45,099 nucleotides of DNA from an uncultured Rickettsiales bacterium (lineage in GTDB: Bacteria; Myxococcota_A; UBA796; UBA9615), in the NCBI GenBank assembly GCA_964596025.1, contig CAZQTQ010000001.1, forward strand, positions 1 to 45,099, in the 5' to 3' direction. The notes under the pieces were generated by a model. It ran no database searches. It worked only from the letters and a program-made list of their open reading frames with translations, and had not been told where the DNA came from. The translations under genes and the position numbers were made by a program. Positions 2,170 through 20,539 of the stretch are shown piece by piece (position 1 is the first letter of the stretch; every line of letters begins with the position of its first letter).

Positions 2170-2357
2170 CCAGCTAAAGTGCCCGGCGGCGCTCGGTCCC
2201 GCCGAATCCGTTGAGAACTTGTTGCGAAGGCCTTGAGAGTTCTTCGGATCCCTCCCTCTACCGAGATCTCCCTAGGCAGCTTGCACTGCCTGTGTATCCT
2301 CGGATCGGTCGCACAAGTCTGCGCCCTCTCGTTCCCTAGCCCGGAGTCCGATTGTCG

Positions 2358-7055: not shown

Positions 7056-7843
7056 CGATCCGCCCCATCGTCCACTTGGAGAAGGGCGCGGAGGTCCCTC
7101 ATCGACGCCGTGTAGGTCCCCGCCCCGTCCCGTACGCAAAACGGCTCCGCTTCGGGCGCGACCGGGGGTTCCTCTTCGGCCCGAAGCGCCACGTAGCCAC
7201 GGAAGCGGGGCTTGAGGCCCTCGCGGGGCGTGAACACCAGCATCCGGCACAAGGCGAGGCCGGCGGCGTCGACGGCCCGCTGGCACCGGGCGTCTTGGCC
7301 GGCGTCCATGAGGAAGGAAGCTCTGCCTCCAGGGGCGAGGAGCGCTGCCGCCGCCTCTGCGTAGGCCTCGATCCCCCCGCGGGTCTCAAAGCGCGCCGCG
7401 TAGCGCTGGGGGTCCCGACTCGCCACGCCGCTGCCGAGAGGCATGAACGGGGGGATACCCGTGATGAGATCGAAGCCCGCAGTCCCCGCGGGCACCAGCT
7501 CCTCCGGCCGCTGCTGGCGAAGGTCGCCTTCCACGATACGTGCCCGCTCGTCGAGACGATTGAGGCAGAGGTTGCGGCGGGCCAGGTCGGCGGAAATGGC
7601 CTGCGCCTCCACTCCAATGAAAGAGGCTTCCGGAAGCAAGGTCGAGAGCAGAAGGGTTGCGGTGGCGTGGCCACAGCCCAGGTCCAGGACGGCGCGCGCG
7701 TGAGGCTGGGAGGTGTAGGCGAGCCAGACGGCCAAGAGGTCGTCGGTCGCGCTGCGGTGTCCTCGGCTGCGCTGCAGCACCACCCGCTCAGAGGCAAGGC
7801 GATCCAGACGCTCACCGTCGCGAGGCTGGACCTGCTCCTTCAT
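7049..7843 (-). CDS. Class I SAM-dependent methyltransferase, 'MTS'/TrmN6(YfiC)-like, with a non-canonical motif IV
   Basis: SAM motif I is VLDLGCGHATATLLLS. Motif IV region is FDLITGIPPF, where the family has (S/T)NPP(Y/F). ATG 7843 forms an ATGA overlap with the stop of the upstream kinase gene. Confidence 0.75.
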   Translation of the reverse strand: MKEQVQPRDGERLDRLASERVVLQRSRGHRSATDDLLAVWLAYTSQPHARAVLDLGCGHATATLLLSTLLPEASFIGVEAQAISADLARRNLCLNRLDERARIVEGDLRQQRPEELVPAGTAGFDLITGIPPFMPLGSGVASRDPQRYAARFETRGGIEAYAEAAAALLAPGGRASFLMDAGQDARCQRAVDAAGLALCRMLVFTPREGLKPRFRGYVALRAEEEPPVAPEAEPFCVRDGAGTYTASMRDLRALLQVDDGADRC

Positions 7844-10800
7844 CGGTGCAAGTCGAGCTGAGACGGGCTCCACCCCGTCCAGGTGACAACCTCTAGCCGG
7901 GGCGCAACGGCCACCCAGCGGCCCAGATGATCGGGGCTGAGCGTCCGGGCCTGGAGTTCGATGCACTCCACGGCCCGTTGTCTAGCTGCTGCGTACTCCA
8001 TGCGGTCTCCCCGCATCTCAGCGACCCTTCCGAGGGCGCAGTGGACTCGCTCTTGCTCCAAGAGGGTGCCGCCGGAGTGGGAGGATGCCGTCGAGGCGGC
8101 GGTCGCGTGGCGATAGGCCGCCTCGACGTCGCCGAGGCGCAAGGCGGTTTGTGCTGCCTCGGCGAGGCTCAAGGTGAGCGTCAGGCGCTGCTCCGTGGCC
8201 CGCAGGATGCGCTCGGCGCGCTCCAGGTGCTGTTGGGCCTCTTCCAGGCGATCGAGCCGCCGGCAGATGTGTCCGGTCACCGTCGAGGCGCGTCCAAGGA
8301 GACCGAGGGCACCGAGCTCAGAGGCCCGCTCTGCAACTGAGAGGCCGCCGGCCAAGCCCCGCTCGGGGTCGCCAGCAACCGCAGTCAGTCGTGCCAAGTG
8401 AAGATCGATCAGCAGAGCGGTCAGGGGATCGGTGTCCCCGTCCGATCGGTTGGCGGCATGTCGGTACCCATCGGCGGCGGCGGCAAACTCGCCCAGCTGG
8501 AGATCGGCTGAAGCAGCACCGGTCAGGGCTACGACCTGCCAGTGGACCAGACCCGAGGCCTGGGCCTGGGACGCAACCCCCAACCAGCGGTCCCGCGCTG
8601 CGATGAGGCTACCGGCCCGGAAGTCCACGCTGGCAATCAGATGGGACAAGCGCAGTAGGGTCGCCGGGGGCGCTTCCACCTGCAGGGCCAGGCGGAAGGC
8701 CTCCTCGACGGTCTCGATGACTCCCTCCTGGTCCTGGGTCTGCTGCTGCACGATCGCCCGCGCGGTCAGCACCTCGAGCATGCGTTCCGGCTCTCCATCC
8801 GCCAGGCTCGTCAGCGCCTGCAGATCGTCTTCGGCCCGGGACCACTCGCAGGCGGTCGTCGCCAGCGCGACCCGGGCTTCAAGGGCCTCGTGAAGAGCCG
8901 GGCTCTCAGTAATCCGAGCCGACTCGACCCACAGATCGGCCATGGCCAGGCCCGTCGCCGTCCGCCCCGAAGCCACCTCGTTCCGGGTGGCAACCGCCAA
9001 GAGTGGGATGGCCGACTCATGCATCCCAACCCGCAGGTAGGTCCGGGCGATCAGCGCGGGGCGCTCCCCGAGACCGACGGGGTGGTCGGCGTGGTCACGA
9101 GACAGGGCATGCGCACAACGGACCGCCGCATCGCTGCGCCGGTCTTCGTCCAGCAGATCCCAGGCAACCAAGCCGGCTTCCCGATCCACCAACTCCAAGC
9201 CCCAACCCGGACCCGACGGCACCTCCTGGAGGAGGCGACGGCGCACCAACATGTTGACCGCATCGACAATCTCGTCCTGCTCGACCGGCGTGTTGTCGAT
9301 AAACCACTCGAGCGAAACGGGCCGTCCGATGAGGCCAAAGTAACCCATGAACTCGACGGCGAGTGGGCTCAGCCCACTGGTGCGGACCTTCCAGCGCTGG
9401 CGTGGATCGCCTGAGGAGACGGCGAGCAGGTCGTCTTCGGTCGCCTCGCGGGCCATTCCGATCCCGGCGTCCTGCAAGAGGGCGGTGGTCCACTGCAAGA
9501 GACCCCGCGGCCACTCGTGGACCCGCTCGGCCGAGGCGCGCAGCGCAAGGCGAGTGGGCGGAACACTCCAGCCCAAAGCGGTCTGCAGGGTGATCGCAAC
9601 GTCCTCGTGGACCAGAGGAGGGATGAGAATTGGAGACCCCGCCCAGGCAGCAGAGGGGCCACTACCAGCCAGCGCAATGAGCTTGGGCCGCCCCCGACCA
9701 ACGGCATCGTCCGGCGGCTCACTCGCCAGGTGGCGAAGCAGGTCGAGGGAATCGGGGTCCATCCGATCCGCGTCGTCGAGTATGAGGGCAACTGGCGCAC
9801 CCCGGCTCAGCAACGAGAGGAGGCGCTCTGCAGCCTGGTAGCCCAAGACCCGCCGGGAGGCCGGCTCCGCCGGCCCCGCCTCGTCCACCGTGGACTCGAA
9901 GCGTTCACGGAGTTGCGGGTTGAGATCCAGAGCGGACGGAAGCGCCGGGCCCAGGAGATCCAACAGGACCGCGTTGGGGATCTTGCGGAGGTAGGCCCAA
10001 AGGGGGGCGAAGAGGCTCCGTGCGGCCGAGAAGCCAATCGCCGGATCGCTGCCGCGAGCCGTCAGCGTCACAACCCCCGTCTCAAATCGGAGGGTGTCAC
10101 GAATCTCGGCCAGCAGGCGGGTGCGACCACTGCCCGGCACCCCCTGGAACCAGTGGACCGCCGCACGCCGCTCGGAGCGTTGCAAAGCAGCAATTGAGTT
10201 ACTGACCAGAGCATCACGGCCACAGAACGCGGGCGCAAACAGCTCCGGCAAGTCGCTAAACTCCAGGGCGTCCTCTTCGGCATGCACAAAGACTGAGGGA
10301 TGGCTGCCTCCGTCCGTAATCAGGCCGTCGGAAGGCGAAGTGATGATGTCCATGCCCAGAGTGATGACCTCGGCATCCGCTTCGGCGTCCAGTCGCTCCT
10401 CCCCCTCGGTCCAAGGCGCCGCCATCGACTGCCCGTCCAACAGCTCGACGGACTCAGAGAGCGAGAGCTCGTCCAGCTCCAAGGAGATGTCGTCCAGCTC
10501 CAAGGAGATGTTGTCCGGCGGCGAGGCCTGCGGCATGGGCCGGGTGGGGGGGGGATCGCCCGGACGGCCACTCTTGTCCTCCTTCTTGCGCCGTTTCAGG
10601 ACCTCCACAATCCAATTCGGCAGCTCGTTGAGGCTGGCGTGCTTGTCGCTCCGGACCTGCAGACTTCCGTCGGGAGCCAGGTGGGAGAGGAGCTCCTCGC
10701 GCACAGCACCTGCATCAGGCGGGCGAGCGGAGGGCTCCTTTTCGAGCAGGTGATTGACCAAATCACAGAGCCCCCGGGGCAGGTGCGGCGCCAGCTCGGC

Positions 10801-11520
10801 GAGCCGAGGGGCCGGCTGGGTCACGTGGGCCATCAGGAGGTCGAAGAGCGAACCCTTGAGGAAGGGCGGCCGTCCGGAGAGCAACTCAAACAGGATGACC
10901 CCCAGGGAATAGAGGTCGGAGCGGCCGTCCAACGGGAGGTTTCTCGCCTGTTCGGGGCTCATGTAGCGGGCGGTACCCACGGTTTCGCCGACCGCGGTCA
11001 GAGGCACCATGGGATCGGCGGCCATGGGCTTGGCGATGCCGAAGTCCACCAGCCGAACCCGCCCGGACATGTCGACGAGGATGTTCTCGGGCTTGAGGTC
11101 CCGATGCAGCATGCGGTGTCCATGGAGGTAGGACAGCGCACTGCAGACCTGCACGCCCAGCGCGAGAACGGGCATGACCTCGTTTTCCGGTAAGGGCCGG
11201 GGCTCGGTACCGTGGCGAGCCTTGCGGCCGGCCACCTTCCAGAGGTCTCCGCCCGAGACCCACTCCATCACAAAGAACTCGCCGTGATCGCAGACGCCGT
11301 AGTTGTAGACCGTCACCACCCCGGGGTGGCGCATCCGGGAGATTGCGTTGAACTCGCGGCGAAACCGAAAGGCCGGCGCCACGCGACCCGCCTGCGTCCG
11401 GAGGAGCTTTACGGCGCGAAGTTCGCCGGTCTTGCAGTCGACAGCGCGGTAGACGGCCCCCATACCTCCGGCCCCCACGAGGACAAAGTCCTCCAGGCCA
11501 TCGATGGCTGGCGGAGTCAC
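7840..11520 (-). CDS. Ser/Thr protein kinase fused to an AAA_16/STAND-like ATPase and a TPR/helical-repeat region (PknK/MalT-like architecture), copy 1
   Basis: Kinase motifs are GAGGMGAVY, AVKLL, HRDLKPENIL, DFGIAK and GTARYMSPEQ. An acidic linker carries ISLELDD/ISLELDE. The P-loop is GVPGSGRT (Walker A Lys replaced by Arg, codon 10123-10125). Walker B is LILDDADR. A long helical-repeat C-terminus follows. Confidence 0.9.
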   Translation of the reverse strand: MTPPAIDGLEDFVLVGAGGMGAVYRAVDCKTGELRAVKLLRTQAGRVAPAFRFRREFNAISRMRHPGVVTVYNYGVCDHGEFFVMEWVSGGDLWKVAGRKARHGTEPRPLPENEVMPVLALGVQVCSALSYLHGHRMLHRDLKPENILVDMSGRVRLVDFGIAKPMAADPMVPLTAVGETVGTARYMSPEQARNLPLDGRSDLYSLGVILFELLSGRPPFLKGSLFDLLMAHVTQPAPRLAELAPHLPRGLCDLVNHLLEKEPSARPPDAGAVREELLSHLAPDGSLQVRSDKHASLNELPNWIVEVLKRRKKEDKSGRPGDPPPTRPMPQASPPDNISLELDDISLELDELSLSESVELLDGQSMAAPWTEGEERLDAEADAEVITLGMDIITSPSDGLITDGGSHPSVFVHAEEDALEFSDLPELFAPAFCGRDALVSNSIAALQRSERRAAVHWFQGVPGSGRTRLLAEIRDTLRFETGVVTLTARGSDPAIGFSAARSLFAPLWAYLRKIPNAVLLDLLGPALPSALDLNPQLRERFESTVDEAGPAEPASRRVLGYQAAERLLSLLSRGAPVALILDDADRMDPDSLDLLRHLASEPPDDAVGRGRPKLIALAGSGPSAAWAGSPILIPPLVHEDVAITLQTALGWSVPPTRLALRASAERVHEWPRGLLQWTTALLQDAGIGMAREATEDDLLAVSSGDPRQRWKVRTSGLSPLAVEFMGYFGLIGRPVSLEWFIDNTPVEQDEIVDAVNMLVRRRLLQEVPSGPGWGLELVDREAGLVAWDLLDEDRRSDAAVRCAHALSRDHADHPVGLGERPALIARTYLRVGMHESAIPLLAVATRNEVASGRTATGLAMADLWVESARITESPALHEALEARVALATTACEWSRAEDDLQALTSLADGEPERMLEVLTARAIVQQQTQDQEGVIETVEEAFRLALQVEAPPATLLRLSHLIASVDFRAGSLIAARDRWLGVASQAQASGLVHWQVVALTGAASADLQLGEFAAAADGYRHAANRSDGDTDPLTALLIDLHLARLTAVAGDPERGLAGGLSVAERASELGALGLLGRASTVTGHICRRLDRLEEAQQHLERAERILRATEQRLTLTLSLAEAAQTALRLGDVEAAYRHATAASTASSHSGGTLLEQERVHCALGRVAEMRGDRMEYAAARQRAVECIELQARTLSPDHLGRWVAVAPRLEVVTWTGWSPSQLDLHR
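10471..10512 (-). repeat. 21-bp tandem duplication inside the kinase-1 acidic linker (ISLELDD/ISLELDE)
   Basis: On the plus strand gtccagctccaaggagatgtc is followed immediately by gtccagctccaaggagatgtt. Confidence 0.85.
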
Positions 11521-11548
11521 GCTGGCGCCGTGCAGACCAGGCAGCGTT

Positions 11549-14500
11549 CTAGCCCCTTCTCCGCCCCGTCGTCGTCATCCGACGGCGCATGTCGGCCCGT
11601 AGGCCGTCCACCTGGGAGCGGAGCTGTACATCGCTGAGGGCCCGACTTGAGCGATCGAGCGAGGCCAAGAGCGGGGCCACGGCCAAGGGCGACTGACGCT
11701 GGAGGATTTCGGCGTCCTGAAGGAAGGAAGCAGCCCGGGCTTCCTCGCCGCTCCGGATCGCGAGCTCTGCACTCAACACGGCCCGAGCGACCCGGTTCTC
11801 GTGAGGCCCAGTAGGGGTCGCCATGCCCGTCTTTGCTTCGTCCAGGCGCCGGGCAGCATGCTCGAGATCGTCGCTCCCCAGAGCCATCGCCGCAATGGAG
11901 AGGAGGACGGGAACGTTGCTGACCTCCCTCTTGCGGCCGAGGATAAGCGCTGTGTCGTAGGCCCGCTGCGCGTGGTCGAGACGCCCATCGACCCGCTCGA
12001 CCTCAGCCCGGAAATACCACAGTCGCTGCAGATCCTGCCAAGAGGCGCGCTGCCGCAGCAACGTGCGAAGTCGCTCCAACTCCTTGCGAGCGCGGGGCAG
12101 ATCGTCGCTGGCCACAGCCAGCGGCAAGCTCGCTATCAGGGCCGCCATCACCAAGGCCTCGTCCTTGAGCTGGTGCGCCAGCTGCCCAGCGGCGGTGCTC
12201 CGCGTCTCGGCCTCGTCGAGGTCTCCAGCGAGATAGTAGAGCTCGGCCAGCTCGGTCAAGGCCCGGCACTGCCACGGCAGACTCTGGATCACGCGGGCCG
12301 TCTCCAGAGCGTGCTGAAGGGAATCAAGGGCCTCACGTGGGCGACCGGCACGACGCAGGGCTTCAGCGTGAAGGAGAAAGGCCCGGGTGCGTTCCACCGA
12401 CGCTGGACTGGCCAGCCAGAGCGGATGAAGCATGTCCAGCGAGGCCGCCAGAGACGAGGCACTGGCCGGGGGCTCCTGCACCTCGTGATCCAAGACGGCA
12501 GCGAGAACCTGGAGATCAGTCTCCTCCTCGCTCCGAAGCAGAGTCCCCGCCATCGACAAGCGTTCCAGCCCGCGATGGACCGCCTTCCAAGCCGAGCGCA
12601 GCTCCCAACGGTTCCTAAGAAGGTGAGCTGCCTCCAGGTCGTTCCGGACGCTGCGATCGTAATCGCCGCAGGCAGCCCGGCTGTCAGCAGCTTCGAGCAG
12701 TCGTTCCGCCCGACCGGGGCCCATACGCCCCGACTCCAAGACCTCGGCCCATGCGCGATGTAGCTCCACCCGCCGCTTGAGGTCGATGCCTTCACGGATG
12801 CTGTTGGCCAAAACGAGGTGGACCAGTCGAGGACCCTCATCCCTCACCTCGACCAGTGCCGACATCACCAAAGTGCTGAGTGCAGCCTCCACACGGTGGG
12901 CTGCCAGACCAATCCAAGAGGCCGCCGCCACGAGGTCTTCCTGGCGGGCCCTCTCCTTTACCAGGGACAGGAGCTCCAGGGTGCCTCGGGTGGCCTCGGA
13001 GTCGCGTGAATCTTGGATTGCGTCATTCGCCCTGGACTGGAGGATGGCGTCCAGCTTCAGGGCACCGGCAGTCGACGGTGTGTCCCCCCGGAGAACGTAG
13101 CCGTCCGGCCCCCAGCGGAGGCGTTGCGTCTCGTCCAGGGAGCGGGCGATCTGCTGGGCTGCGCGCGGATCACCCTTGGCCCAACGTGCGATCTCAAGCC
13201 CAAGCTCCGGCTGCGTGCCAGCCGTGTGCCCCAGGACCGCAGCCACCGCCGGATCGGCGAGCGGGCCCATGGGCAAGACCAAGGTCTCGGGCTGGGCATG
13301 AATCATCATCCAGCCTGGCGAACTCACGGTCTCGTCGTGGGCCAGCTCGTCACGAGCGGTCGCCACAACCGCAATCGGCAGGTCGTCTTCGGCGGCAAAG
13401 AGGGTTTGGAAGAAGACCAGCAGCGCTTCGTCGCGTCCGCGATCCATGTCCTCCAACCAGAGGAGGAGCGGGCGCCTCCGAGCCAAGACTCGAAGAAGCT
13501 CCACTGCAGTTGCTGCCTCCTCGCGTTGGCGGGGGCGCCGTCCACGGCCGGGCTCGAGTACCGAGAGCAGGCGGGGCACTAGGTCGGCATCGGGCGGATA
13601 GCCCGCTTCGGCCAGGACCCTGCGCACCCGCCCCTCACGCAGGTCCGAAGGAAGGGTGTGCAGACGAAGAATGCGGTGCAGAAGGCGTCTAAGTCCCCCG
13701 GCCCCGGAACCGTCGGCCCGAAAGCGCACATGGTGGGACCGAGCAACTCCGACCTCCTCAGCCACCGCAGCCAGTTCGCTGGCAAAGCGAGTCTTTCCGC
13801 GACCTGGAGGCCCCTCGATAACGACGAACACCGGGCGCCGGGCCCAAGATGCCTTGGCGATGTGCTCCCACGCCTTCGCCCACTCTTCCTCTCGGCCCTG
13901 CAGGGGGGCATCCCGCATGGACAAGAGGGCGTAGGAGACGGTGGGAACCGCTGGCCCGGACGGTTCCACGTCTGCGATCTTGGCCCGCCCTTCCTCCCAG
14001 GCCTCGTCCGGCGGTCGGTCCACAGCCCAAGAGGGAGGCAAGACGATCTCCCGGCTGGTTCCCGGCTTCAAATCGAGGGTGGACTCACATTCGATGATGT
14101 CGCTCATCGGCTCGATCGACGTCGGATCGGTATCTCGGTCTTCCGCCCCCTTGACCGACTCCATCATGAGGTCGGTACCCTCGGCACTGAGCGCGCGCGG
14201 GCCGGTGGTCAGATCCGCAGCGAAGTCCACCGGCAGACTGCGCCGCACGTCTGCGGCCCAACCAAAGCGATGGGCCGTGTCCGGTGCCAAGAGCCGGAGT
14301 AAGAAGCGACGCAGGGGTACCCCCAGCACCGTCAGAGGCTGGAGCGGCACCGCAAACTGAGAGGCAATCCGCTCCTTCCAGATCTCGTCGGAATGAGTTC
14401 CTGGGAAAGGCAAGACCCCAAGAAGCAGCTCCGCGATGACGACGCCCAAGGAGTAGAGATCTGTCCAGGGTCCGAGATCGCCACGCGGCCCCAGCGCCTG

Positions 14501-15130
14501 CTCAGGGGCCATGTAGTGCCGCGTCCCGGGGACAAGGCCGACCATGGGGGTGGTCATGGAGACCGCAGCCGGGGTCTCGTCGAGGGCGCGTGCTCCCGTG
14601 GTCCAGGTCGCGATTCCAAAGTCGAGAATGTGAACCCTGGGCTCGGCAGAGTCCTCGGACAAGAGGATATTCGAGGGCTTGAGGTCCATGTGGATGACGC
14701 CTTGCCCGTGGGCATAAGCCAGGGCCTCGAGAGCCTGGTCGGCGATCTTTCGTACCCAGAGCCACGGCCTTGGCCTCCCTGTCCAGTTGGACAGCGGCTT
14801 GCCCGGAACGAAGTCGAAGACCAGGGCCGGAACCGGATCCGTCACCGAGTCCAAACAGAGACGGGTACGATCCAGGAGGGCGACGAGGTTGGGATGGTTG
14901 AGCCGGGCGACGGTGTGTGCCTCGGCCACCAGCCAGCGCTCGGCATCCGAGACGCTGCCACCACCGCGAGGAAACTTCAGCGCGACCGAACGCTCGAGTG
15001 CGGTGTCTTCTGCCCGCCAGACCTCACCCATCCCGCCGCGTCCGAGGAACTCCACAAGCCGGTAGCGACCGTCCTCCGACGGAAGGCCCAACCAGCGGGT
15101 ATTGCCGGCTTCAGTGGGGTGTTCAGCCAC
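11549..15130 (-). CDS. Ser/Thr protein kinase fused to an AAA_16/STAND-like ATPase and a TPR/helical-repeat region, copy 2 (non-RD kinase)
   Basis: Kinase motifs are GRGGMGEVW, VALKF, HMDLKPSNILL (HRD Arg replaced by Met, codon 14687-14689), DFGIAT and GTRHYMAPEQ. The Walker A GPPGRGKT is canonical and Walker B is LLLWLEDMDR. GTG start 15130 is preceded by AAGGA. Confidence 0.9.
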   Translation of the reverse strand: MAEHPTEAGNTRWLGLPSEDGRYRLVEFLGRGGMGEVWRAEDTALERSVALKFPRGGGSVSDAERWLVAEAHTVARLNHPNLVALLDRTRLCLDSVTDPVPALVFDFVPGKPLSNWTGRPRPWLWVRKIADQALEALAYAHGQGVIHMDLKPSNILLSEDSAEPRVHILDFGIATWTTGARALDETPAAVSMTTPMVGLVPGTRHYMAPEQALGPRGDLGPWTDLYSLGVVIAELLLGVLPFPGTHSDEIWKERIASQFAVPLQPLTVLGVPLRRFLLRLLAPDTAHRFGWAADVRRSLPVDFAADLTTGPRALSAEGTDLMMESVKGAEDRDTDPTSIEPMSDIIECESTLDLKPGTSREIVLPPSWAVDRPPDEAWEEGRAKIADVEPSGPAVPTVSYALLSMRDAPLQGREEEWAKAWEHIAKASWARRPVFVVIEGPPGRGKTRFASELAAVAEEVGVARSHHVRFRADGSGAGGLRRLLHRILRLHTLPSDLREGRVRRVLAEAGYPPDADLVPRLLSVLEPGRGRRPRQREEAATAVELLRVLARRRPLLLWLEDMDRGRDEALLVFFQTLFAAEDDLPIAVVATARDELAHDETVSSPGWMMIHAQPETLVLPMGPLADPAVAAVLGHTAGTQPELGLEIARWAKGDPRAAQQIARSLDETQRLRWGPDGYVLRGDTPSTAGALKLDAILQSRANDAIQDSRDSEATRGTLELLSLVKERARQEDLVAAASWIGLAAHRVEAALSTLVMSALVEVRDEGPRLVHLVLANSIREGIDLKRRVELHRAWAEVLESGRMGPGRAERLLEAADSRAACGDYDRSVRNDLEAAHLLRNRWELRSAWKAVHRGLERLSMAGTLLRSEEETDLQVLAAVLDHEVQEPPASASSLAASLDMLHPLWLASPASVERTRAFLLHAEALRRAGRPREALDSLQHALETARVIQSLPWQCRALTELAELYYLAGDLDEAETRSTAAGQLAHQLKDEALVMAALIASLPLAVASDDLPRARKELERLRTLLRQRASWQDLQRLWYFRAEVERVDGRLDHAQRAYDTALILGRKREVSNVPVLLSIAAMALGSDDLEHAARRLDEAKTGMATPTGPHENRVARAVLSAELAIRSGEEARAASFLQDAEILQRQSPLAVAPLLASLDRSSRALSDVQLRSQVDGLRADMRRRMTTTGRRRG

Positions 15131-15170
15131 GGGATTTCATCCTTGGGGAAGCTGCCGAGAAGGAGAAGTA

Positions 15171-15186
15171 GGCTGGTATTCTGCCA
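15171..15186 (-). promoter_or_regulatory. Weak sigma54-like -24/-12 element upstream of the kinase operon
   Basis: The minus strand reads TGGCAGAATACCAGCC. GG/GC spacing is correct, but the -12 is CAGC rather than TTGC. It sits in the 61-bp divergent region between the kinase-2 and FHA-bEBP genes. Confidence 0.25.
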
Positions 15187-15191
15187 CTCGA

Positions 15192-16586
15192 ATGGCATCC
15201 GCGGCCAACCACACCAGCAAGACAGCTCTCGTCCCTGAAGGCCGAGGGGCTGGCACTGGGGGAGTCCTCCTTCGGGTCAACGCCACCGTGATCGACGGGC
15301 CAGACCTCGGCCTGACGGCCCCACTTACGGCAGAACCGGTGGTAATCGGCAAGTCGGACGGCTGCGACATCGTCCTGACCGACAGCGCGGTGTCCAAGCG
15401 CCACCTGGAGCTGAAGGTCGAGGGCTCCACACTGCGCATTCAGGATCTGGAGAGCACCAACGGCACCTTCATCGGGAAGAACCGCATCATCGAGAGCATC
15501 GTCCCGGTGGGCTCGGTCGTCACCCTGGGACGGACGCGCATCCACCTCCGCTCCGAGGACGACCCCCTCCTCCTGACGCCGTCTTCCGAGACGCAGTTCG
15601 GGGACCTGGTGGGCCAATCGGTGGCCATGAGGCAGGTCTTTGGCATCCTCGAGCGGGTCTCGGGGCGGGATGTCAGCGTCCTCCTCGACGGTGAGACCGG
15701 CACCGGCAAGGAGTTGGCCGCCCGCGCCATTCATGAACACTCGGGCCGAGCCCAGGGCCCCTTTGTCTGCCTGGATTGCTCGGCCGTCGCTCCAGAGTTG
15801 GTGGAGAGCCAGCTCTTTGGGCACCGCAAGGGGGCCTTTACCGGTGCCATGCAGGACCGCCAGGGGGTCTTCGAGAGCGCTGAGGGCGGCAGCATCTTCC
15901 TTGACGAGCTCGACTCCTTGCCCTTGGACCTGCAGCCCAAGCTCTTGCGGCTGCTCGAGACCCGTGAGGTAACACGCCTGGGAGAGTTCAAACCCCGCCC
16001 CATCGACGTCCGCATCGTGGCGGCCTGCGGCCGCTCGCCAGAAGACGCCGTTGCCCGGCGCGAGCTGCGCCGAGACCTCTACTTCCGCCTCGCCGTCGTT
16101 CGAGTCACCCTGCCCAGCCTTCGCGACCGCCTCGACGATCTTCCACTGCTCGTGAAGACGCTGTTGGAACGAATCGGCAAGCAGCCGCTCACGGTGGAGG
16201 AGGGCCCCGGCCTGAGCCGCCTGAGCCAGCATCCGTGGATGGGGAACGTCCGCGAACTGCGCAACGTCCTGGAGCGAGCCATCCTGCTGGCGCCGACGGG
16301 GGTCAAGGGCCTGGACGATCTGCCGCTGCGCTTAAGCCCCATCCTCAACGACGGAGCGGAGACTGTGAGCCAAGGGCTCGGTGCGGCCCAGCTGCGCCTG
16401 CCCTACAAGGAGGCCAAGGAAGAGGCGCTGGCCCGGTTCGAGCGGCAGTACCTGAGCGCGGCCTTGTCCCGCAACGGGGCCAATCTGAGCAAGACGGCCC
16501 GAGATGTGGGCTTGACGAGGCACCACCTCCGTAAGCTCCTGCGCCAACACCGACTGATCGCGGCGAGCGCCAAAGGCAAGACCTAA
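15192..16586 (+). CDS. Sigma54-dependent transcriptional activator (bEBP) with an N-terminal FHA domain and a C-terminal Fis-type HTH
   Basis: FHA domain: VVIGKSDGCDIVLTDSAVSKRHLELKVEGSTLRIQDLESTNGTFIG. AAA+ sigma54 module: GETGTGKELAARAIH, ESQLFGHRKGAFTGA, GSIFLDELD. HTH tail: NLSKTARDVGLTRHHLRKLL. I chose ATG 15192 because track start 15102 would overlap the divergent kinase gene. Confidence 0.9.
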   Translation: MASAANHTSKTALVPEGRGAGTGGVLLRVNATVIDGPDLGLTAPLTAEPVVIGKSDGCDIVLTDSAVSKRHLELKVEGSTLRIQDLESTNGTFIGKNRIIESIVPVGSVVTLGRTRIHLRSEDDPLLLTPSSETQFGDLVGQSVAMRQVFGILERVSGRDVSVLLDGETGTGKELAARAIHEHSGRAQGPFVCLDCSAVAPELVESQLFGHRKGAFTGAMQDRQGVFESAEGGSIFLDELDSLPLDLQPKLLRLLETREVTRLGEFKPRPIDVRIVAACGRSPEDAVARRELRRDLYFRLAVVRVTLPSLRDRLDDLPLLVKTLLERIGKQPLTVEEGPGLSRLSQHPWMGNVRELRNVLERAILLAPTGVKGLDDLPLRLSPILNDGAETVSQGLGAAQLRLPYKEAKEEALARFERQYLSAALSRNGANLSKTARDVGLTRHHLRKLLRQHRLIAASAKGKT

Positions 16587-16636: not shown

Positions 16637-19021
16637 CTACAGGAACAGGGTCCCCTCCCACTCGCCCTGTACGTTGCCCATGGGATCGTAGGCCGTAGCC
16701 CGAATCGCCCGCTCTCCGGAGCCGGGGACGAGAGCTTGCAGCTCGAAGTAGGGGCCAGGGGCATAGTCGAGACCTGTGACCATGTCGGCTACGACCTCCC
16801 CCTCCACCTCGATCACCACACGCTCGGTGCCAGCCGGGGCAGCCGCCGAGAAGTGAAACAGGGAAGCGCCGACCCGCTCCCAGCTCAGCTCGAGCTCAAG
16901 GCTGGGAACGATGAAGACCCCGCTCTGGGTGTCTACTAGAGTCCCACTGCTGCCGAAGGCCCGCACCTCCAGGTACTTCACACCCGAGGTCTCGAACCTG
17001 TAGTAGAGGAGGAACTCTGCGGGGTAGGCGCTGGTCGCGCCGGTCGCCAGATCCACCAACTGCTCCCCGTTGACCCAGTACTCGACCCAGGCCACCGACA
17101 GCTCCGCTTCCGTCCCGAAGCGCATGATTCGATCACCGATGCCCCAGCCCTCTGCGGCATGGATGGCGCCAGAAGTCGAAGCTCCCGCCGGCACGTCGAT
17201 GTAGGTGAAGCCCTCACCCACGAACTCACCTTCGGAATCGTAGGACCGAGCCACCAGGAGACGACCGTGGCCGGGAGAGTTGAAGCTGTAATCCAAGGAG
17301 TACGGCGCGCCGAAGGCTTTGTACTCCCCGGTATAGGAGTCGCTCAAGCCCCAGCCGTCCACCCAGTAGCGCAGGTAGGCGACATCTCCTGTCGTGCCTG
17401 CGGTGAAGCGCCAGGTGTTGCCTTCGAGGAGGAGACCCTGAGGTTGCACCGTCCCTTCGAGGTTGTGGACCTCGAAGCTGACGCTGTCCGTAGCCAAGAG
17501 CGTTCCGGCGACGCTGAGGTTCTTGGCGGTGACGGTATGCGTGCCAGGGGTGGAGAAGACGTAACCCATGTGGACCGGATTGGCCACGAGGTCGTAGGCA
17601 ATGCGAAGGGGTCCCGACCACAACTCGACGTGGTGTCCGCCAGTGCGGGCGATCCGCATCACCACCGGGTTGCCGACCTCTTCCCCACTGCGGGGGGTAT
17701 GGAAGGACACCGAGGCAACCGAGGGAAGACCCCAGGTCTCGCCAGACGCATCGGAGCCACCAGAGGAGGAGTCGTCACTGTCGGAGGAACCCGAACCACC
17801 ACCCCCTCCGGAGGTTGAATCGCCCGAACCCGAACCCGAATCCGAATCCGAACCCGAACCCGAACCGCCGCTACCACCCGAGGCAAGACCATCACCCGAG
17901 ACCAGGTCCTGAACCATGCCGAGGTACTGATCCCAGGGGAAGTGGGGGCCGGGGTCATAGCGGTAGGAACACGAGGCGGGCTGGATCTCGCCGTGCCCCA
18001 CGATGTGATCGCGATCGATCGGGATGCCATAGCTCTGTACCAGCCACGCCGTCAGCCGAGCCGAGGACTCCAGGAGCGACGGGGTCCAGGTCGAGGGGTT
18101 GCTTGCCGCACCTTCATGCTCGATGCCAACGGTGTCGTTGTTGTTGGAGCAAGCGTGCCACGCCTTCTTGCCCTCCTTGACCATCTGCGTTACTTCGCCA
18201 TCCGACTTGCGGAGGACGTAGTGCGCCGAGACCGAGGCACTCGGATTCTGGAACCAGGAGATGGCGCCGGCATAGCTTCCCTCGGTGGTGTGGAGGACAA
18301 CCCGACGGATGGTCCCGGATCGACTGCTGAAGTTGCTGCTGTGGGCGCCGACGAAACGAGCTGTACCGGGATAGTCACTCGAACCGCTGAATGAGCCGCT
18401 GTCGCTGCTGGGCGGGTAGATAAAGGGGACGTCGAGGAGGCCAGGCAGCTCGCGGGCTCCCACCTCGACCCAGTCTCCAGAGACCGTGGTGACGCGAAGA
18501 CCGCGCTGGAGTGTAGCGAAGACGTCCTTGGCAAAGTCATGTGCGAGCCATTCCGGCTCCATTTGTGCCCAAGCGACGACGACAGGCCACCAAGCGGCGT
18601 CGGCGTGCTGGCCATCGGCAAAGGGCGAGTGCGCGACTCGCAGGGCATCCAACAGGGCTGCGGCCGCGAAGATGTTCGCCTCGCGGTCGCTGCGGATCGC
18701 CTCTTCGTCCAGCCCGCAGAGAGCGGCCGCTTCAATGACTCGTTCCGGCGAGAGACCCATCCATCCGTGGGCGGGACGGTGCTCGTCGTGGTCGTGATCG
18801 CCCGGGGACAGGGAGGTCTCGTGCCAGCTCAGCGCAACGAGAAGGTCCCTTGGTACGCCGTAGTGAGCCCCAGCCGCAGCGAAGACATCCGTTGCCGGCG
18901 CGTCCCGCAGGGTGGGCTCGAAGAGCGCTCCATCAGGCCCAGAGGAAGGCGAAACGGGAAGACTGTGGCAAGCCGAGAGGCTCAGGAGGGCACAGAAGAA
19001 GGCCGTAAAAGATGTTCGCAT
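16637..19021 (-). CDS. Lipoprotein peptidoglycan hydrolase: SLT-like N-region, N-acetylmuramoyl-L-alanine amidase (Amidase_2/PGRP) domain, Gly/Ser/Asp linker and four Ig-like beta-sandwich repeats
   Basis: Lipobox is MRTSFTAFFCALLSLSA|C. The SLT-like region reads LVALSWHETSL...HGWMGLS. The amidase_2 core is VVLHTTEGSYAGAISWFQNP...SAHYVL...AWHA...VGIEHEG...IVGHGEI. The linker is GGSGGSGSGSDSDSGSGSGD.... Four ~85-aa modules each contain (Y/L)xYWV(D/N)G-like or related strands. Confidence 0.85.
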   Translation of the reverse strand: MRTSFTAFFCALLSLSACHSLPVSPSSGPDGALFEPTLRDAPATDVFAAAGAHYGVPRDLLVALSWHETSLSPGDHDHDEHRPAHGWMGLSPERVIEAAALCGLDEEAIRSDREANIFAAAALLDALRVAHSPFADGQHADAAWWPVVVAWAQMEPEWLAHDFAKDVFATLQRGLRVTTVSGDWVEVGARELPGLLDVPFIYPPSSDSGSFSGSSDYPGTARFVGAHSSNFSSRSGTIRRVVLHTTEGSYAGAISWFQNPSASVSAHYVLRKSDGEVTQMVKEGKKAWHACSNNNDTVGIEHEGAASNPSTWTPSLLESSARLTAWLVQSYGIPIDRDHIVGHGEIQPASCSYRYDPGPHFPWDQYLGMVQDLVSGDGLASGGSGGSGSGSDSDSGSGSGDSTSGGGGGSGSSDSDDSSSGGSDASGETWGLPSVASVSFHTPRSGEEVGNPVVMRIARTGGHHVELWSGPLRIAYDLVANPVHMGYVFSTPGTHTVTAKNLSVAGTLLATDSVSFEVHNLEGTVQPQGLLLEGNTWRFTAGTTGDVAYLRYWVDGWGLSDSYTGEYKAFGAPYSLDYSFNSPGHGRLLVARSYDSEGEFVGEGFTYIDVPAGASTSGAIHAAEGWGIGDRIMRFGTEAELSVAWVEYWVNGEQLVDLATGATSAYPAEFLLYYRFETSGVKYLEVRAFGSSGTLVDTQSGVFIVPSLELELSWERVGASLFHFSAAAPAGTERVVIEVEGEVVADMVTGLDYAPGPYFELQALVPGSGERAIRATAYDPMGNVQGEWEGTLFL
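17824..17866 (-). repeat. Hexanucleotide (ccgaaY) microsatellite-like run encoding the GS/DS linker of the amidase
   Basis: ccgaacccgaacccgaatccgaatccgaacccgaacccgaacc encodes GSGSGSDSDSGSGS on the minus strand. Confidence 0.8.
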
Positions 19022-19034
19022 GCCCTGTTTACAG

Positions 19035-19050
19035 AGCAGGGATCGTGCCA
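19035..19050 (-). promoter_or_regulatory. Candidate sigma54 (-24/-12) promoter of the peptidoglycan-hydrolase lipoprotein gene
   Basis: The minus strand reads TGGCACGATCCCTGCT against the consensus TGGCACG-N4-TTGCW. The GG and GC have exactly the canonical spacing, with one mismatch in the -12 TT. It is intergenic, with 13 nt between the motif and ATG 19021. Confidence 0.6.
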
Positions 19051-19135
19051 GCCTGAGGAGGAACGAAAAAGCTGTCTATTATCAGGAGCTTCCAGTCGAA
19101 AGCCCTGCTAAGCGCTGACACCAACCCCACGGGGG

Positions 19136-19154
19136 TGGTCACTCGATCGACCAG
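19136..19154. promoter_or_regulatory. Imperfect second copy of the dyad (TGGTCACTCGATCGACCAG)
   Basis: It shares TGGTCACTCGA and GACCAG with the perfect palindrome. The copies are offset by 42 bp (about four helical turns). It is centred ~120 bp upstream of the predicted sigma54 start. Confidence 0.4.
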
Positions 19155-19177
19155 TTTCCGGCGGGATTCTCGGGTTT

Positions 19178-19197
19178 CTGGTCACTCGAGTGACCAG
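19178..19197. promoter_or_regulatory. Perfect 20-bp palindrome CTGGTCACTCGAGTGACCAG; candidate enhancer (UAS) for a bEBP, and/or hairpin after the HDOD operon
   Basis: It is its own exact reverse complement. It is centred ~165 bp upstream of the predicted sigma54 start site and lies 10 nt downstream of the HDOD gene stop (19208). Confidence 0.5.
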
Positions 19198-19207
19198 CCA
19201 GACCTAG

Positions 19208-20539
19208 CTAGACCGAAGAGCCGACCGTATCCCACCAGGTCTGGGCCTCAGTAGCCGACCGCGTGAAGAGGGCCTCCTCGAGACCCAGGGCTGCGGCAGC
19301 CAGAGACATGTGAGGGCCCAGGTCATGCCCGCTCTTGTAGGCACACCCGTTGGCGACAACCGCAGCGTGCGCTGCACCGACGAGCCAGGAATGGCGGGCA
19401 ACCGGCGTCCCCTGCGGCAGGGTACTGGGTTCGTGGTGGGCAAAGGCGATGCTGCAAACCCCGGGCGCAAAGCCCCAGGACTTGAGAAGCATGGCCCCCA
19501 GTGGCCCATGGTGCCGATCCATGTCCCGCTTGAGTACCCCGTCGGCCAGACCACCGCTGGGCGGTGACCCCGAGTACTTACGCGCCAAGTCCACAACGAG
19601 AACCTCGCCTAGGTTGTGCAGCAGGGCCATGCTGTACAGCGCGCCGGGATTGGCGTCGCCCAAGCGCTCACCGAGAAGCCGCGCCGCGTAGGCCGCCTGA
19701 ACCGTCGCCTTCCACATGTTGCCGAGAAGACGGCTCCAGCCGCGGTCTATGCTGCTGTAGGCCCCTCTCATCGCTGCCATCTGGGCTACCTCGCCCAACC
19801 GCCGAACTCCCAGTCGAACCCCGGCGTGGTTGAGGTCCAGGATGCGAGGCATGCCGCGATAGGCGGCCGAATTTGACGCCCGCAGGACGGCAGCTGCGAG
19901 GTTGGGGTCTTGGGAGACCTTGGTCACGATCTGAGGAATGCTGGGCTTGTCCTGCACGCAGAGGGACTGGAGCTGGATGCCCACGGGCGAGATGTTCGAC
20001 ACCTCAGCCTCGCCTTTGCGCATCTTCTCGGCGAGCTCACGGATCTGCTCACGGATGGGACTGGCCGAGCGGGCGGGAGAGGCCTCATTTTCACCCTCTT
20101 CCGACCCCACATCCTCAGCGCCTTCAGCACCGTCCGTTCCCTCCGATGGATCGCTCGGAAGCACTGCTGGCGGCCCTAAGAGCAACTCCTGGACCGTCAC
20201 CTCCAACTCGGTCGGGGACAACGGCTCCAAGAGAACGATCTGCACTCCCTCCTCTAAGAGCTGCGGCCCACGGCCCACGGCCCGCTCGTTGCCGAAGACA
20301 ATGATCCGACAAGGAGAGTCCTTCTCGATGCAGTGGCTCAAGAACTCAACGCCCCCCTCCTGCCAGGCCTGAATGTTGAAGAGACAGACCTCCGGAAGCG
20401 GGCGGCCTCGCTTGGCGAGCCGAGCCGTAACGCTCGGCTCAGCTGAGCCGAGGTGTCCCAGTCGGTCCACGGTCCGCAGGAGCGAGGCCTGGCGGGTGGA
20501 GTTGGGGTCAATCACCAAGATTCGAGCTGGGGGATGCAT
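19208..20539 (-). CDS. HDOD-domain signalling protein with an N-terminal pseudo-receiver domain
   Basis: The REC-like N-terminus (RILVIDPNSTRQ...) has Asn where the phospho-acceptor Asp is expected (EVCLFNIQAW). The HDOD region reads PSIPQIVTKVSQDPNLAAAVLRASNSAAYRG...LGVRRLGEVA...LLHNLGEVLV. Its start overlaps the upstream stop by 1 nt (TGATG). Confidence 0.8.
   Translation of the reverse strand: MHPPARILVIDPNSTRQASLLRTVDRLGHLGSAEPSVTARLAKRGRPLPEVCLFNIQAWQEGGVEFLSHCIEKDSPCRIIVFGNERAVGRGPQLLEEGVQIVLLEPLSPTELEVTVQELLLGPPAVLPSDPSEGTDGAEGAEDVGSEEGENEASPARSASPIREQIRELAEKMRKGEAEVSNISPVGIQLQSLCVQDKPSIPQIVTKVSQDPNLAAAVLRASNSAAYRGMPRILDLNHAGVRLGVRRLGEVAQMAAMRGAYSSIDRGWSRLLGNMWKATVQAAYAARLLGERLGDANPGALYSMALLHNLGEVLVVDLARKYSGSPPSGGLADGVLKRDMDRHHGPLGAMLLKSWGFAPGVCSIAFAHHEPSTLPQGTPVARHSWLVGAAHAAVVANGCAYKSGHDLGPHMSLAAAALGLEEALFTRSATEAQTWWDTVGSSV

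Follow-up and report, generated by a model that had tools for sequence, protein, structure and literature searches.

Putative sigma-54 enhancer-dependent control of a lipoprotein peptidoglycan hydrolase gene, with a predicted leaderless start, in an uncultured marine bacterial lineage

We found that positions 19022-19207 of a DNA stretch from an uncultured marine bacterial lineage (45,099 nt in length, referred to in full as the window) very probably form the enhancer-dependent control region of a gene for a lipoprotein peptidoglycan hydrolase. A predicted sigma-54 type -24/-12 promoter lies immediately in front of the start codon, two dyads resembling activator-binding sites lie further upstream, and both are retained in all 13 orthologous loci compared (the window, L001, L002, L003, L005, L006, L007, L008, L010, L011, L020, L091 and L092). 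The gene for an FHA-domain activator, most probably the cognate one, is the convergent neighbour of the hydrolase gene (Table 1).

Table 1. Positions of the features of the predicted control region and of the neighbouring genes in the window
Feature	Position	Strand	Remarks
-24/-12 promoter, TGGCACGATCCCTGCT	19035-19050	minus	GG at 19048-19049, GC at 19036-19037; consensus match and conservation
Distal UAS dyad, perfect 20-bp palindrome CTGGTCACTCGAGTGACCAG	19178-19197		Centre 166.5 bp upstream of the A of the ATG
Proximal UAS dyad, imperfect, CTGGTCGATCGAGTGACCAC on the minus strand	19135-19154		Centre 123.5 bp upstream of the ATG
A/T-rich patch including a weak IHF-like match	19064-19092		Bend or IHF site possible; not a conserved element
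Predicted transcription start zone	19021-19024	minus	5' UTR of 0-3 nt, deduced from promoter geometry
Target gene, 794-aa lipoprotein	16637-19021	minus	SLT-like N-terminal domain, Amidase_2 (residues 236-359), Ig-like C-terminal repeats
Candidate cognate activator gene	15192-16586	plus	Domains: FHA, AAA+ for sigma-54 interaction (GAFTGA), Fis-type HTH; adjacent and convergent to the target gene
Ser/Thr protein kinase gene, with AAA_16 and TPR	11549-15130	minus	Divergent from the activator gene; exact start codon uncertain

The target ORF begins with MRTSFTAFFCALLSLSAC, a lipoprotein signal with a lipobox, and its product matched PF01510 (Amidase_2) with an E value of 1.6e-28. Conserved His, Glu and Cys columns were observed in the alignment of the amidase family, whose profile matched AmpD (E = 2.9e-12), AmpDh2, AmiD and a bacterial Ig domain among PDB entries; Pfam SLT was matched in nine of 30 family members and Big_7 in two. 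We assign the product to the Amidase_2 peptidoglycan amidases of the AmpD/AmiD class, with a predicted activity. The ATG at 19021 is the first start codon after an in-frame stop, and the equivalent ATG opens a lipoprotein signal in every orthologue; the starts given further upstream by the gene caller for L004/L089 (802 aa) were rejected, since such reading frames would run through the promoter and the dyads. The gap of 186 bp at 19022-19207 is bounded upstream by an HDOD stop codon at 19208, the upstream RR-HDOD operon being co-directional. The orthologues came from marine metagenomes and shared 39-57% protein identity with the window, and even the closest relative of the hydrolase protein did not exceed about 57%. 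The nearest named homologues were found in Myxococcota or Deltaproteobacteria MAGs; the lineage of the window is probably Myxococcota.

An earlier sequence-only reading had placed a -24/-12 promoter 13 nt before the ATG, and we located it exactly there, with 13 nt between TGGCACGATCCCTGCT and the ATG at 19021. Fifteen of 16 positions agreed with YTGGCACGrNNNTTGCW, and the GG and GC doublets were exactly 10 bp apart. Taken alone, this match is not significant, a single match at no more than one mismatch being the chance level in 45 kb (0.88 expected), as it should be if the similarity were fortuitous and the gene used an unrecognised sigma-70 or ECF promoter. The significance proper derives from conservation in relatives. 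That reading had proposed the conservation of these motifs in orthologous intergenic regions as a check, and both the -24/-12 element and the dyads proved to be kept in the 13 loci. The GG-N10-GC spacing was exact in all of them, and in 12 the element lay at the same offset amid otherwise unalignable DNA, with L092 carrying it at a different offset. Across the upstream regions of the 11 loci that were aligned, the only invariant blocks were the two dyads, GG..C......TGC and C-ATG, and the intergenic DNA outside them could not be aligned; within the promoter, the GG, the C three bases after it and the TGC were invariant between unalignable flanks. Several -24 hexamers depart from TGGCAC (TGGACC, TGGTCC, TGGCCC and TGGTAC), the GG and the TGC being constant throughout. 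The upstream regions of L091 and L092, including the promoter element, fitted the same pattern.

By a rough estimate of about 0.03 per locus, the probability of such a coincidence would fall far below 1e-8 for five independent lineages. In addition, sigma-54-type promoters preceded the more distant homologues in L036, L037, L039/40, L041, L044 and L055, and no sigma-70-like promoter was found, all of which makes a chance resemblance extremely improbable. In the orthologue lineage of L013/L027, only one dyad is present, at -54, and the -24 element is broken (TGTGACC). The 45-kb window does not contain an rpoN gene; the presence of an activator with GAFTGA suggests that sigma-54 is encoded in the genome.

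Tandem dyads upstream of the promoter had likewise been proposed, and both were located, the distal one being perfect; the pair stands, whereas the spacing of 42 bp assigned to it does not, since the start-to-start distance is 43 bp. The proximal dyad is 108.5 bp from the C of the -12 GC. Two dyads of the form TGGTCAC-N4-GTGACCr were present in 13 of 13 orthologous loci, 43-45 bp apart in each, and such a pair at an enhancer-like distance from the promoter is what is expected of a UAS (at least two sites, at roughly 80-200 bp). In the window, the dyad pattern had five matches against 0.29 expected, a number reached by none of 100 shuffles. The dyad-like sites at 1129, 2154 and 17031 were discounted, as they are located within coding sequence or at its end, and the one at 2154 has no GG-N10-GC downstream. 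In 807 kb of fetched DNA, 28 of the 41 matches at no more than one mismatch were upstream of amidase genes, and every one inspected among the remaining 13 fell in coding sequence. For example, matches in L014 and L018 were coding coincidences arising from VT..VT in signal peptides, and one in L006 arose from the C-terminal VVIHVTG of the ORF that immediately precedes an M24 gene. No regulon was definable from the DNA examined.

Palindromes of this kind could also be hairpins in RNA or DNA, acting as a terminator or attenuator of the HDOD operon or representing a repetitive extragenic palindrome. The distal dyad starts 11 bp past the HDOD stop codon, the two dyads can pair with each other (22-nt arms, 86% complementary), and a weak Rfam match of hairpin type, sub-threshold with 25 bits (gathering score 83), covers 19132-19200. 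However, no covariation or compensatory changes were observed, departures from symmetry were one-sided, and pair counts on the dyads equalled those of shuffled controls; what is conserved is the sequence and not merely the pairing. No U-tract follows the dyads, no terminator-like site was found on the minus strand, and the element was not dispersed in the 807 kb examined. Furthermore, the dyads accompany the amidase gene even in loci with another upstream gene, which encodes a CPBP protease in L005-L007 and a basic protein in L008 and L010, and their phase relative to the promoter is conserved. We consider a hairpin function very improbable and rejected the dyads as an RNA element; their pattern of conservation indicates that they are protein-binding sites.

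The distance from the proximal dyad to the -12 element was 64.5 bp in one locus, 76.5 bp in two, 87.5 bp in three, 97.5-101.5 bp in five, and 108.5 and 110.5 bp in one each, giving classes about 11.3 bp apart (64.5, 76.5, 87.5, about 99 and about 110 bp). When periods from 10 to 12 bp were scanned, the best was 11.3-11.4 bp (R = 0.84), with p = 5e-5 for the 13 loci and p = 0.002 for nine conservative lineages. For example, the sister loci L001 and L002 differ in this distance by exactly 11 bp. Such phased distances fit the face-of-helix dependence expected for DNA looping, which is itself predicted, and the phasing of about 11.3 bp over natural variants may represent an evolutionary record of looping constraints and of the helical repeat in vivo. 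Helical phasing was not among the predictions of the sequence-only reading, yet is consistent with its enhancer model.

Between the dyads and the promoter, the 20 nt at 19064-19083 contain 70% A+T compared with 33% for the window overall, a level that none of 300 random segments reached. Besides the window, L003, L005, L006 and L011 have a significant A/T-rich patch; that of L007 is borderline, and five of the 11 orthologues (L001, L002, L008, L010 and L020) have none at all. The putative IHF site at 19080-19092, TATCAGgagcTTC (TATCAGGAGCTTC on the plus strand), had been credited with a 12/13 match to the consensus; it has two mismatches to WATCAANNNNTTR and agrees at seven of nine informative positions, a match equalled or bettered by 6% of random window segments of the same length. 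The site was not conserved across the 11 loci, of which L005 and L020 alone beat the 5% background. On account of the weak match and its lack of conservation, we rejected an IHF-assisted promoter.

As had been stated of the window, the gene with FHA, Sigma54_activat and HTH_8 domains is the sole activator gene among the ORFs scanned and is convergent with the amidase gene. Its product matched PF00158 (Sigma54_activat) with E = 9e-61, the GAFTGA motif is visible in the alignment, and the HTH, NGANLS.T.RDVGLTRHHLRKLLR, is invariant among the aligned activators. Genes for this activator and for the divergent Ser/Thr kinase are linked to the hydrolase gene in eight of 12 distinct loci; the linked activators are 66-67% identical and lie downstream on the opposite strand, usually as the next gene. 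The divergent pairing of kinase and activator is kept in L005-L008, L010, L020/21, L087 and L091. For a 62%-identical activator paralogue in L087, the sequence ends too near the gene to inform on linkage.

The promoter and the dyads may nevertheless be real while the dyads are bound by another protein, such as an activator encoded elsewhere, a repressor or a factor that is not an activator, with the FHA activator controlling something else. In four distinct loci the dyads are retained although the flanks seen do not encode the activator, namely L002 and L004/L089 (6 kb) and L090, at the same place as L011, and L092 (4.5 kb), indicating that adjacency is not required and that the cognate factor could be a different protein. 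Genomes of the group also appear to hold many FHA-type activators, and 4486 homologues of the activator were counted database-wide at E <= 1e-60. Against another binder stand the linkage in eight distinct loci, which, together with an HTH that is invariant where the dyad is invariant, makes the neighbouring activator the likely partner, as the sequence-only reading had suggested. Two further loci are informative: in L084, the dyad is found again ahead of an operon (with CCGGTCACGTCGGTGACCGG and TTGGCACGGCGTATGCT upstream) whose third gene encodes a paralogue 59% identical to the activator. In L085, where the paralogue has an altered recognition helix (RMHLRT), the dyads of the sigma-54 promoter that it faces are different ones, TGGCAA..TTGCCA. 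In addition, positions near -100 and -145 and helical phasing suit an enhancer and not an operator. We therefore regard another binder as unlikely, and the FHA activator most probably binds the dyads. Through the FHA domain, the kinase is a probable upstream signal input. To our knowledge, few FHA-type activators have a defined DNA site, and the motif defined here by phylogenetic footprinting, together with the invariant recognition helix that goes with it, offers a candidate site.

A near-leaderless start had also been proposed for the hydrolase gene and is upheld as a prediction from promoter geometry. In 12 of the 13 orthologues, the end of the promoter is 12-13 nt from the invariant C-ATG (13-14 nt from the C of -12 to the A of the ATG), and all 12 lack a Shine-Dalgarno sequence. 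In the window, AGGG is the sole purine run ahead of the ATG and stops 1 nt short of it, leaving the gene without a usable Shine-Dalgarno sequence. A pyrimidine/purine context is generally preferred at transcription start sites, and the C-A step at the start provides one. A spacing of 12 nt recurs at unrelated sigma-54-type promoters in L084, L018 and L041. A conserved TATTCT, similar to a -10 element, lies 9 nt upstream of the ATG of the activator gene, and several window genes lack a Shine-Dalgarno sequence and have TAnnnT 6-9 nt ahead of the start codon, suggesting that leaderless starts are common in the lineage.

Alternatively, the mRNA may not be leaderless, either because transcription starts further upstream, by read-through from RR-HDOD or from another promoter, or because a longer leader is translated without a Shine-Dalgarno sequence, the spacing being fixed for another cause. 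No terminator was present between the HDOD stop and the amidase gene, and the more distant orthologue in L092 has a promoter-ATG gap of 32 nt plus GGAG, showing that leaderless initiation is not obligatory for the hydrolase family. Furthermore, the rule by which transcription starts 19 bp downstream of the motif centre (PMC4591121) gives a UTR of 2-3 nt for the window, not 0. An mRNA of this predicted kind would count as leaderless under a definition that allows a 5' UTR of up to 5 nt (PMC12754779, after Beck and Moll 2018), and a UTR of 2-3 nt instead of 0 is associated with poor leaderless translation in E. coli according to a reference within PMC3616915. The fixed spacing and invariant C in the 12 orthologues, their lack of Shine-Dalgarno sequences, the C-A step, the recurrence of the spacing at unrelated promoters and the short upstream distances at the activator and other window genes all speak against these alternatives, which we consider rather unlikely.

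The conserved predicted sigma-54 leaderless start is the only unusual part of the region, the rest being an ordinary bacterial switch. We tentatively extend it to the lineage, as a possibility that falls a little short of even chances: enhancer-dependent sigma-54 promoters may be routinely fused to the start codon, at the hydrolase gene and at least three others (the lipoprotein operon of L084, the MBL-fold gene of L018 and the distant homologue of L041), so that transcripts would begin at the AUG or 1-3 nt before it and need no Shine-Dalgarno sequence for translation. Translation would then be confined to activator-triggered transcripts, with read-through from the co-directional upstream operon remaining silent, which, if true, would provide a two-layer off state for a potentially lytic hydrolase. 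We found no description of a sigma-54-dependent leaderless mRNA in the literature searched; should the start map to the AUG, the region would represent a conserved link from sigma-54 transcription to leaderless translation and would account simply for how a dangerous enzyme stays silent.

For the best explanation of these data we infer activator binding to the dyads, sigma-54 dependence, the transcription start, kinase input and the physiological role of the hydrolase. Sigma-54 RNA polymerase would form a closed complex on TGGCACGATCCCTGCT, and the two TGGTCAC-N4-GTGACCA dyads, about four helical turns apart, would be occupied by NtrC-class activator dimers, the activator most probably being the FHA-domain protein encoded next to the hydrolase. 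The bound dimers would assemble into an active ring and contact the polymerase through a DNA loop of about 100 bp, a bend that the A/T-rich patch may ease in the genome of the window, and promoter opening would be driven by ATP hydrolysis. Transcription would start 0-3 nt before the ATG, yielding an mRNA without a Shine-Dalgarno sequence to be translated in the leaderless mode. The activity of the activator would probably be set by phospho-threonine signalling from the divergent Ser/Thr kinase to the FHA domain. The region would thus supply this uncultured marine lineage with a signal-to-output module running from Ser/Thr kinase to FHA activator, dyad, sigma-54 promoter and predicted bifunctional lipoprotein hydrolase.

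The sequence-only reading had held that sigma-54 control of a cell-wall hydrolase would be notable; this is too strong, as such control has already been predicted for enzymes of the cell envelope, lytic transglycosylases of Myxococcia among them (PMC12316311; PMC4551910). The hydrolase finding fits this known link between sigma-54 and the cell envelope. The closest parallel in architecture is PexR of Myxococcus xanthus, probably of the same phylum as the window, for which tandem interrupted palindromes upstream of a sigma-54 promoter have been shown experimentally (PMC12754779). Like the window, the katB and ahpC promoters of that system combine such palindromes with a -24/-12 element in an architecture conserved in relatives, and the proposed leaderless start of the PexR gene itself, from a sigma-A promoter, resembles the TATTCT-N9-ATG of the window's activator gene. 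However, PexR senses through a GAF domain and not an FHA domain, its repeat is CACCG-N6-CGGTG in three or more copies compared with two dyads of the TGGTCAC-N4-GTGACCA type, its targets are peroxide-defence genes and not a cell-wall hydrolase gene, and its sigma-54 transcripts were not reported to be leaderless (PMC12754779).

NtrC at glnAp2 likewise has two dyad sites about 100-150 bp upstream, loops to a closed sigma-54 complex and combines a GAFTGA-containing AAA+ domain with a Fis-type HTH (textbook; PMC7057263). The input of NtrC is a receiver phosphorylated by a histidine kinase, whereas that of the window's activator is an FHA domain, probably fed by a Ser/Thr kinase; the half-site sequence also differs, and in the window the target is a cell-wall hydrolase and essentially no 5' leader is predicted. 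FHA-domain enhancer-binding proteins are a family typical of Myxococcota and presumed to be coupled to Ser/Thr kinases. For those of M. xanthus, we are aware of neither a defined DNA site nor a hydrolase target; in work by Jelsbak, Givskov and Kaiser (PNAS, 2005; ref. 91 of PMC12288465), they reportedly have the order FHA, sigma-54 AAA+ and HTH seen in the window's activator. The closest named Myxococcota homologues of the latter are only 45-50% identical.

With respect to the hydrolase, AmiD of E. coli and AmpDh2 of P. aeruginosa also carry a lipoprotein signal peptide, and we know of no sigma-54 control of either. They share the Amidase_2 domain (PDB 2bh7 and 4bpa; E = 1e-5 to 6e-5 to the family profile), whereas the window's hydrolase is three times longer and adds an SLT-like N-terminal domain and Ig-like repeats. 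Finally, sigma-54 promoters are described as encoding insulation against read-through, with CT-rich motifs associated with lower expression of the downstream gene (bioRxiv 10.1101/086108). Our proposal has in common with that report a promoter region that would keep read-through transcripts untranslated, and differs in the means proposed, which are the absence of a Shine-Dalgarno sequence and a 5'-terminal AUG in the window instead of CT-rich motifs.

The promoter, palindromes and A/T-rich stretch listed in an earlier sequence-only reading were all present in the gap between the HDOD-domain gene and the hydrolase gene. Both palindromes stood as described, with their separation corrected from 42 to 43 bp, and the G+C content of the stretch between the dyads and the promoter was 0.51, compared with approximately 0.65 in its surroundings in the window. 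Within the 45 kb, the promoter consensus alone was matched once with 0.88 matches expected, which is the chance level; the dyad pattern was over-represented (five matches versus 0.29 expected). A dyad-like sequence with two mismatches, CCGGTCAGTCCAGTGACCAG (2154-2173), spans the TGA stop of the sodium:dicarboxylate symporter gene, and no GG-N10-GC promoter was found between it and the next ORF at 2352.

Features of the control region in the window, and sigma-54-type promoters of distant hydrolase homologues in their own loci
Feature	Position	Strand	Remarks
Intergenic gap	19022-19207	minus	186 bp, from the HDOD-gene stop codon to ATG 19021
HDOD-domain gene	19208-20539	minus	upstream of the hydrolase gene
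-24/-12 element TGGCACGATCCCTGCT	19035-19050	minus	followed by 13 nt (ctgtaaacagggc) and then ATG
Perfect palindrome CTGGTCACTCGAGTGACCAG	19178-19197
Second palindrome copy	19135-19154		89% identical, 43 bp from the perfect palindrome
Promoters of distant homologues	L036 ~225; L037 ~5886; L039 ~5950; L041 5982; L044 ~430; L055 5899

Homologous loci were taken from species-representative genomes (L001-L003), metagenomes (L004-L083) and an exact-protein look-up (L089-L092), with true start codons set by the lipoprotein signal. The hydrolase protein has no close relative; its best full-length matches were 51-53% identical, with local tblastn segments of up to 57-61%. Besides the window, the orthologous loci were L001, L002, L003, L005, L006, L007, L008, L010, L011, L020 and L091 (47-57% identity), and L092, the most distant one counted (39%). 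We found a GG-N10-GC element in every orthologous locus, for example CGGCACGGATGCTGCG, TGGTACGTTTCCTGCT, TGGACCGCTTCTTGCG and TGGCACTGATGTTGCG, with two TGGTCAC-N4-GTGACCr dyads upstream in all, and the proposed check of motif conservation in orthologous intergenic regions came out in favour of the -24/-12 promoter and the tandem dyads. Aligning 11 of the upstream regions with MAFFT (alignment A2) gave invariant columns only in the two dyads, GG..C......TGC and C-ATG, and the remainder was unalignable. Across the 807 kb of fetched DNA there were 41 dyad matches with at most one mismatch; 28 of these precede the amidase genes, and those read among the other 13 were coding coincidences. L003 has a third dyad, GTGGACAGTGCTGTGACCAG (5622-5641), some 248 bp ahead of the ATG, and in L001 and L002 a weaker third copy falls within the last part of the HDOD-like gene upstream. 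The promoter may have decayed in the ortholog lineage of L013 (730-820) and L027 (2350-2436), which has a single dyad at -54, a disrupted -24 element (TGTGACC) and shortened spacing; this lineage has been moved beside a different upstream gene, an ORF ending ...HYHIPLLLSPYGYSTYRGS that reads as hydroxyisourate hydrolase-like from its sequence. Those homologues that carry a name are MAGs of Myxococcota or Deltaproteobacteria, at odds with the titles of the genome records, and the lineage assignment is tentative.

A reading of the dyads as RNA stems was rejected because departures from symmetry are one-sided and covariation is no higher than in shuffled controls; on the same grounds, the dyads are best regarded as DNA sites for a protein. 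The centre-to-centre distance of the two dyads is 43-45 bp in all loci; measured from the centre of the proximal dyad, the C of the -12 GC lies 64.5, 76.5 (n = 2), 87.5 (n = 3), 97.5-101.5 (n = 5), 108.5 or 110.5 bp away. These distances show phasing that is best described by a period of 11.3-11.4 bp (scanned over 10-12 bp; R = 0.84, 13 loci), with a simulated p of 5e-5 for the 13 loci and 0.002 for nine conservatively independent lineages, indicating that insertions and deletions between enhancer and promoter have been accepted only as whole helical turns. In the sister loci L001 and L002, the dyad-promoter distance differs by exactly 11 bp. Such whole-turn changes are what activation by DNA looping would predict, and the in vivo helical repeat in ara and lac looping experiments is likewise reported to be about 11 bp.

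The FHA-type activator gene was confirmed as the convergent neighbour of the hydrolase gene, the two being linked in eight distinct loci including the window. Its start was placed at ATG 15192 by alignment of orthologues, and its domain order is FHA, Sigma54_activat and HTH_8. Orthologues 66-67% identical lie on the opposite strand downstream of the amidase gene in L005, L006, L007, L008, L010, L020/21 and L091, and a divergent Pkinase-AAA_16 gene follows each linked orthologue. The dyads are retained in four distinct loci where no activator gene was found within 4.5-6 kb: L002, L004/L089, L090 (corresponding to L011) and L092. The GAFTGA loop is intact, and all seven activator sequences compared share an identical helix-turn-helix, NGANLS.T.RDVGLTRHHLRKLLR; the invariant helix-turn-helix of this candidate activator matches the invariant dyad half-site. 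In L084, an operon that follows CCGGTCACGTCGGTGACCGG and TTGGCACGGCGTATGCT has as its third gene a 59%-identical paralogue (helix GLSRPHLRKLLR). The L085 paralogue is 55% identical and its recognition helix is RMHLRT; the gene convergent with it is VldE-like and is preceded by a sigma-54 promoter, TGGCACGCTCGTTGCT, and a 32-nt gap with GGAG (11200-11360, minus), and the dyads of that gene, TGGCAAGTCGACTTGCCA and TGGCAACTCCCCTTGCCA, differ from those of the window. These few cases of helix-site covariation point in the right direction. FHA-type activators were reportedly described in M. xanthus by Jelsbak et al. in 2005 (cited in PMC12288465); in the light of this known biology, the FHA domain, together with the conservation of the divergent kinase gene, suggests phospho-threonine control of the activator. 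In the window, two tandem large Ser/Thr kinase genes with AAA_16 (7840-15130, minus) adjoin the activator gene, the activator-proximal one also carrying TPR repeats; the pair is conserved in L087, and an APH-family gene is close by both there and in the window.

The near-leaderless geometry was also upheld. The -12 C and the A of the ATG are separated by 13 or 14 nt in 12 of the 13 orthologues, in which a C always precedes the ATG and no Shine-Dalgarno sequence was found before it. By the rule of PMC4591121, which puts the start 19 bp past the motif centre, transcription in the window would begin at approximately 19023-19024. For the 12-nt spacing class, the predicted start is 1-2 nt ahead of the ATG. 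Since C-A is the pyrimidine/purine step preferred at start sites, the A of the ATG itself may be +1, and the predicted 5' UTR is 0-3 nt. PMC12754779 quotes a limit of 5 nt or less for leaderless mRNAs, under which the hydrolase mRNA is predicted to be leaderless. L092, with dyads and promoter kept, has a 32-nt promoter-ATG gap containing GGAG, indicating that the predicted leaderless form is a conserved variant and not a requirement. No terminator was found between the co-directional RR-HDOD operon and the hydrolase gene; since the Shine-Dalgarno sequence is missing, read-through transcripts would be untranslatable, which may insulate the gene from read-through.

The 12-nt spacing also occurs at strong sigma-54-type matches before unrelated genes, namely the L084 operon, the putative MBL-fold gene of L018 and, in L041, a distant homologue of the amidase. 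In L018, a different activator gene (1422-2276) is flanked by TTGGCACGATCCGTGCC (1310-1340, minus), 12 nt before the ATG of the divergent gene, whose product starts MIFRQLFDRESCTYTYLLGD and was judged MBL-fold by reading its sequence, and by two CCAGATG-N3-CATCTGG palindromes (2349-2475, spaced by about 105 bp), which lie upstream of an amidase homologue. A -10-like TATTCT (TATTGT in L007) ends 9 nt before the activator ATG 15192 (15160-15194, plus) and is conserved in seven loci (the window, L005, L006, L007, L008, L010 and L020). No Shine-Dalgarno sequence was found before this ATG in the window or at the same place in six loci, and the activator mRNA is probably leaderless from a sigma-70-type promoter. 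TAnnnT was found 6-9 nt before putative start codons without Shine-Dalgarno sequences at 5313 (+), 22450 (-), 25727 (-), 37752 (+) and 907 (+) in the window, and the operon-internal genes (HDOD 20539, 29331 and 25807) carry GGAG-type sites, a pattern suggesting that leaderless mRNAs are frequent in this genome or lineage.

The IHF site did not hold as part of the layout. Its claimed 12/13 match was overstated, with two mismatches and agreement at seven of nine informative positions. A significant A/T-rich patch occurs in the window, L003, L005, L006 and L011; the patch is borderline in L007 and absent from L001, L002, L008, L010 and L020. Only L005 and L020 come near the IHF consensus, and the window does so weakly. 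Given this patchy occurrence, an IHF site is not a conserved element of the control region; in some genomes, a bend, whether intrinsic or induced by a protein, may help.

The hydrolase ORF (794 aa) begins MRTSFTAFFCALLSLSAC, a lipoprotein signal, and contains an Amidase_2 domain whose core resembles AmpD, AmpDh2 and AmiD; Ig-like repeats occupy its C-terminal half. Pfam SLT was matched in the N-terminal domain by 9 of 30 family members (best E = 2.9e-6), the window protein giving only E = 0.3, and the product is thus a lipoprotein that combines an amidase domain and Ig-like repeats with a probable lytic transglycosylase domain. Distant homologues (35-40% identical) in L036, L037, L039/40, L041, L044 and L055 also have GG-N10-GC promoters, 12 nt from the start in L041 and about 28-40 nt in the others (with GAGGAG in L037), but carry TGCGAC-N6-GTCGCA-type repeats upstream, unlike the window dyads. 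Sigma-54 control thus appears to be an old trait of the family, exerted by different activators. No sigma-54 element was found before the 1133-aa paralogues (L012, L014 and L017), which have another motif in common. The motif TTGAGAA(G/C)TTGTGGAG, which may be an alternative-sigma promoter, lies 10-90 nt upstream of distant amidase homologues, most without dyads (L012, L014, L016, L017, L018, L019 and L026), and a similar one, GTTGAGAACTTGTTGCGAAGG, follows the symporter gene in the window (2205-2225).

The locus fits, with good support, an established kind of sigma-54 enhancer. Tandem palindromes with a -24/-12 promoter are the established layout of NtrC at glnAp2, which the window shares. 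Tandem interrupted palindromes with such a promoter are likewise the layout of PexR in M. xanthus (PMC12754779). PMC4551910 already links sigma-54 to the cell envelope, and PMC12316311 predicted sigma-54 control ahead of lytic transglycosylase genes in Myxococcia. In the literature searched, we found no description of sigma-54 transcription giving a leaderless mRNA, the arrangement predicted here.
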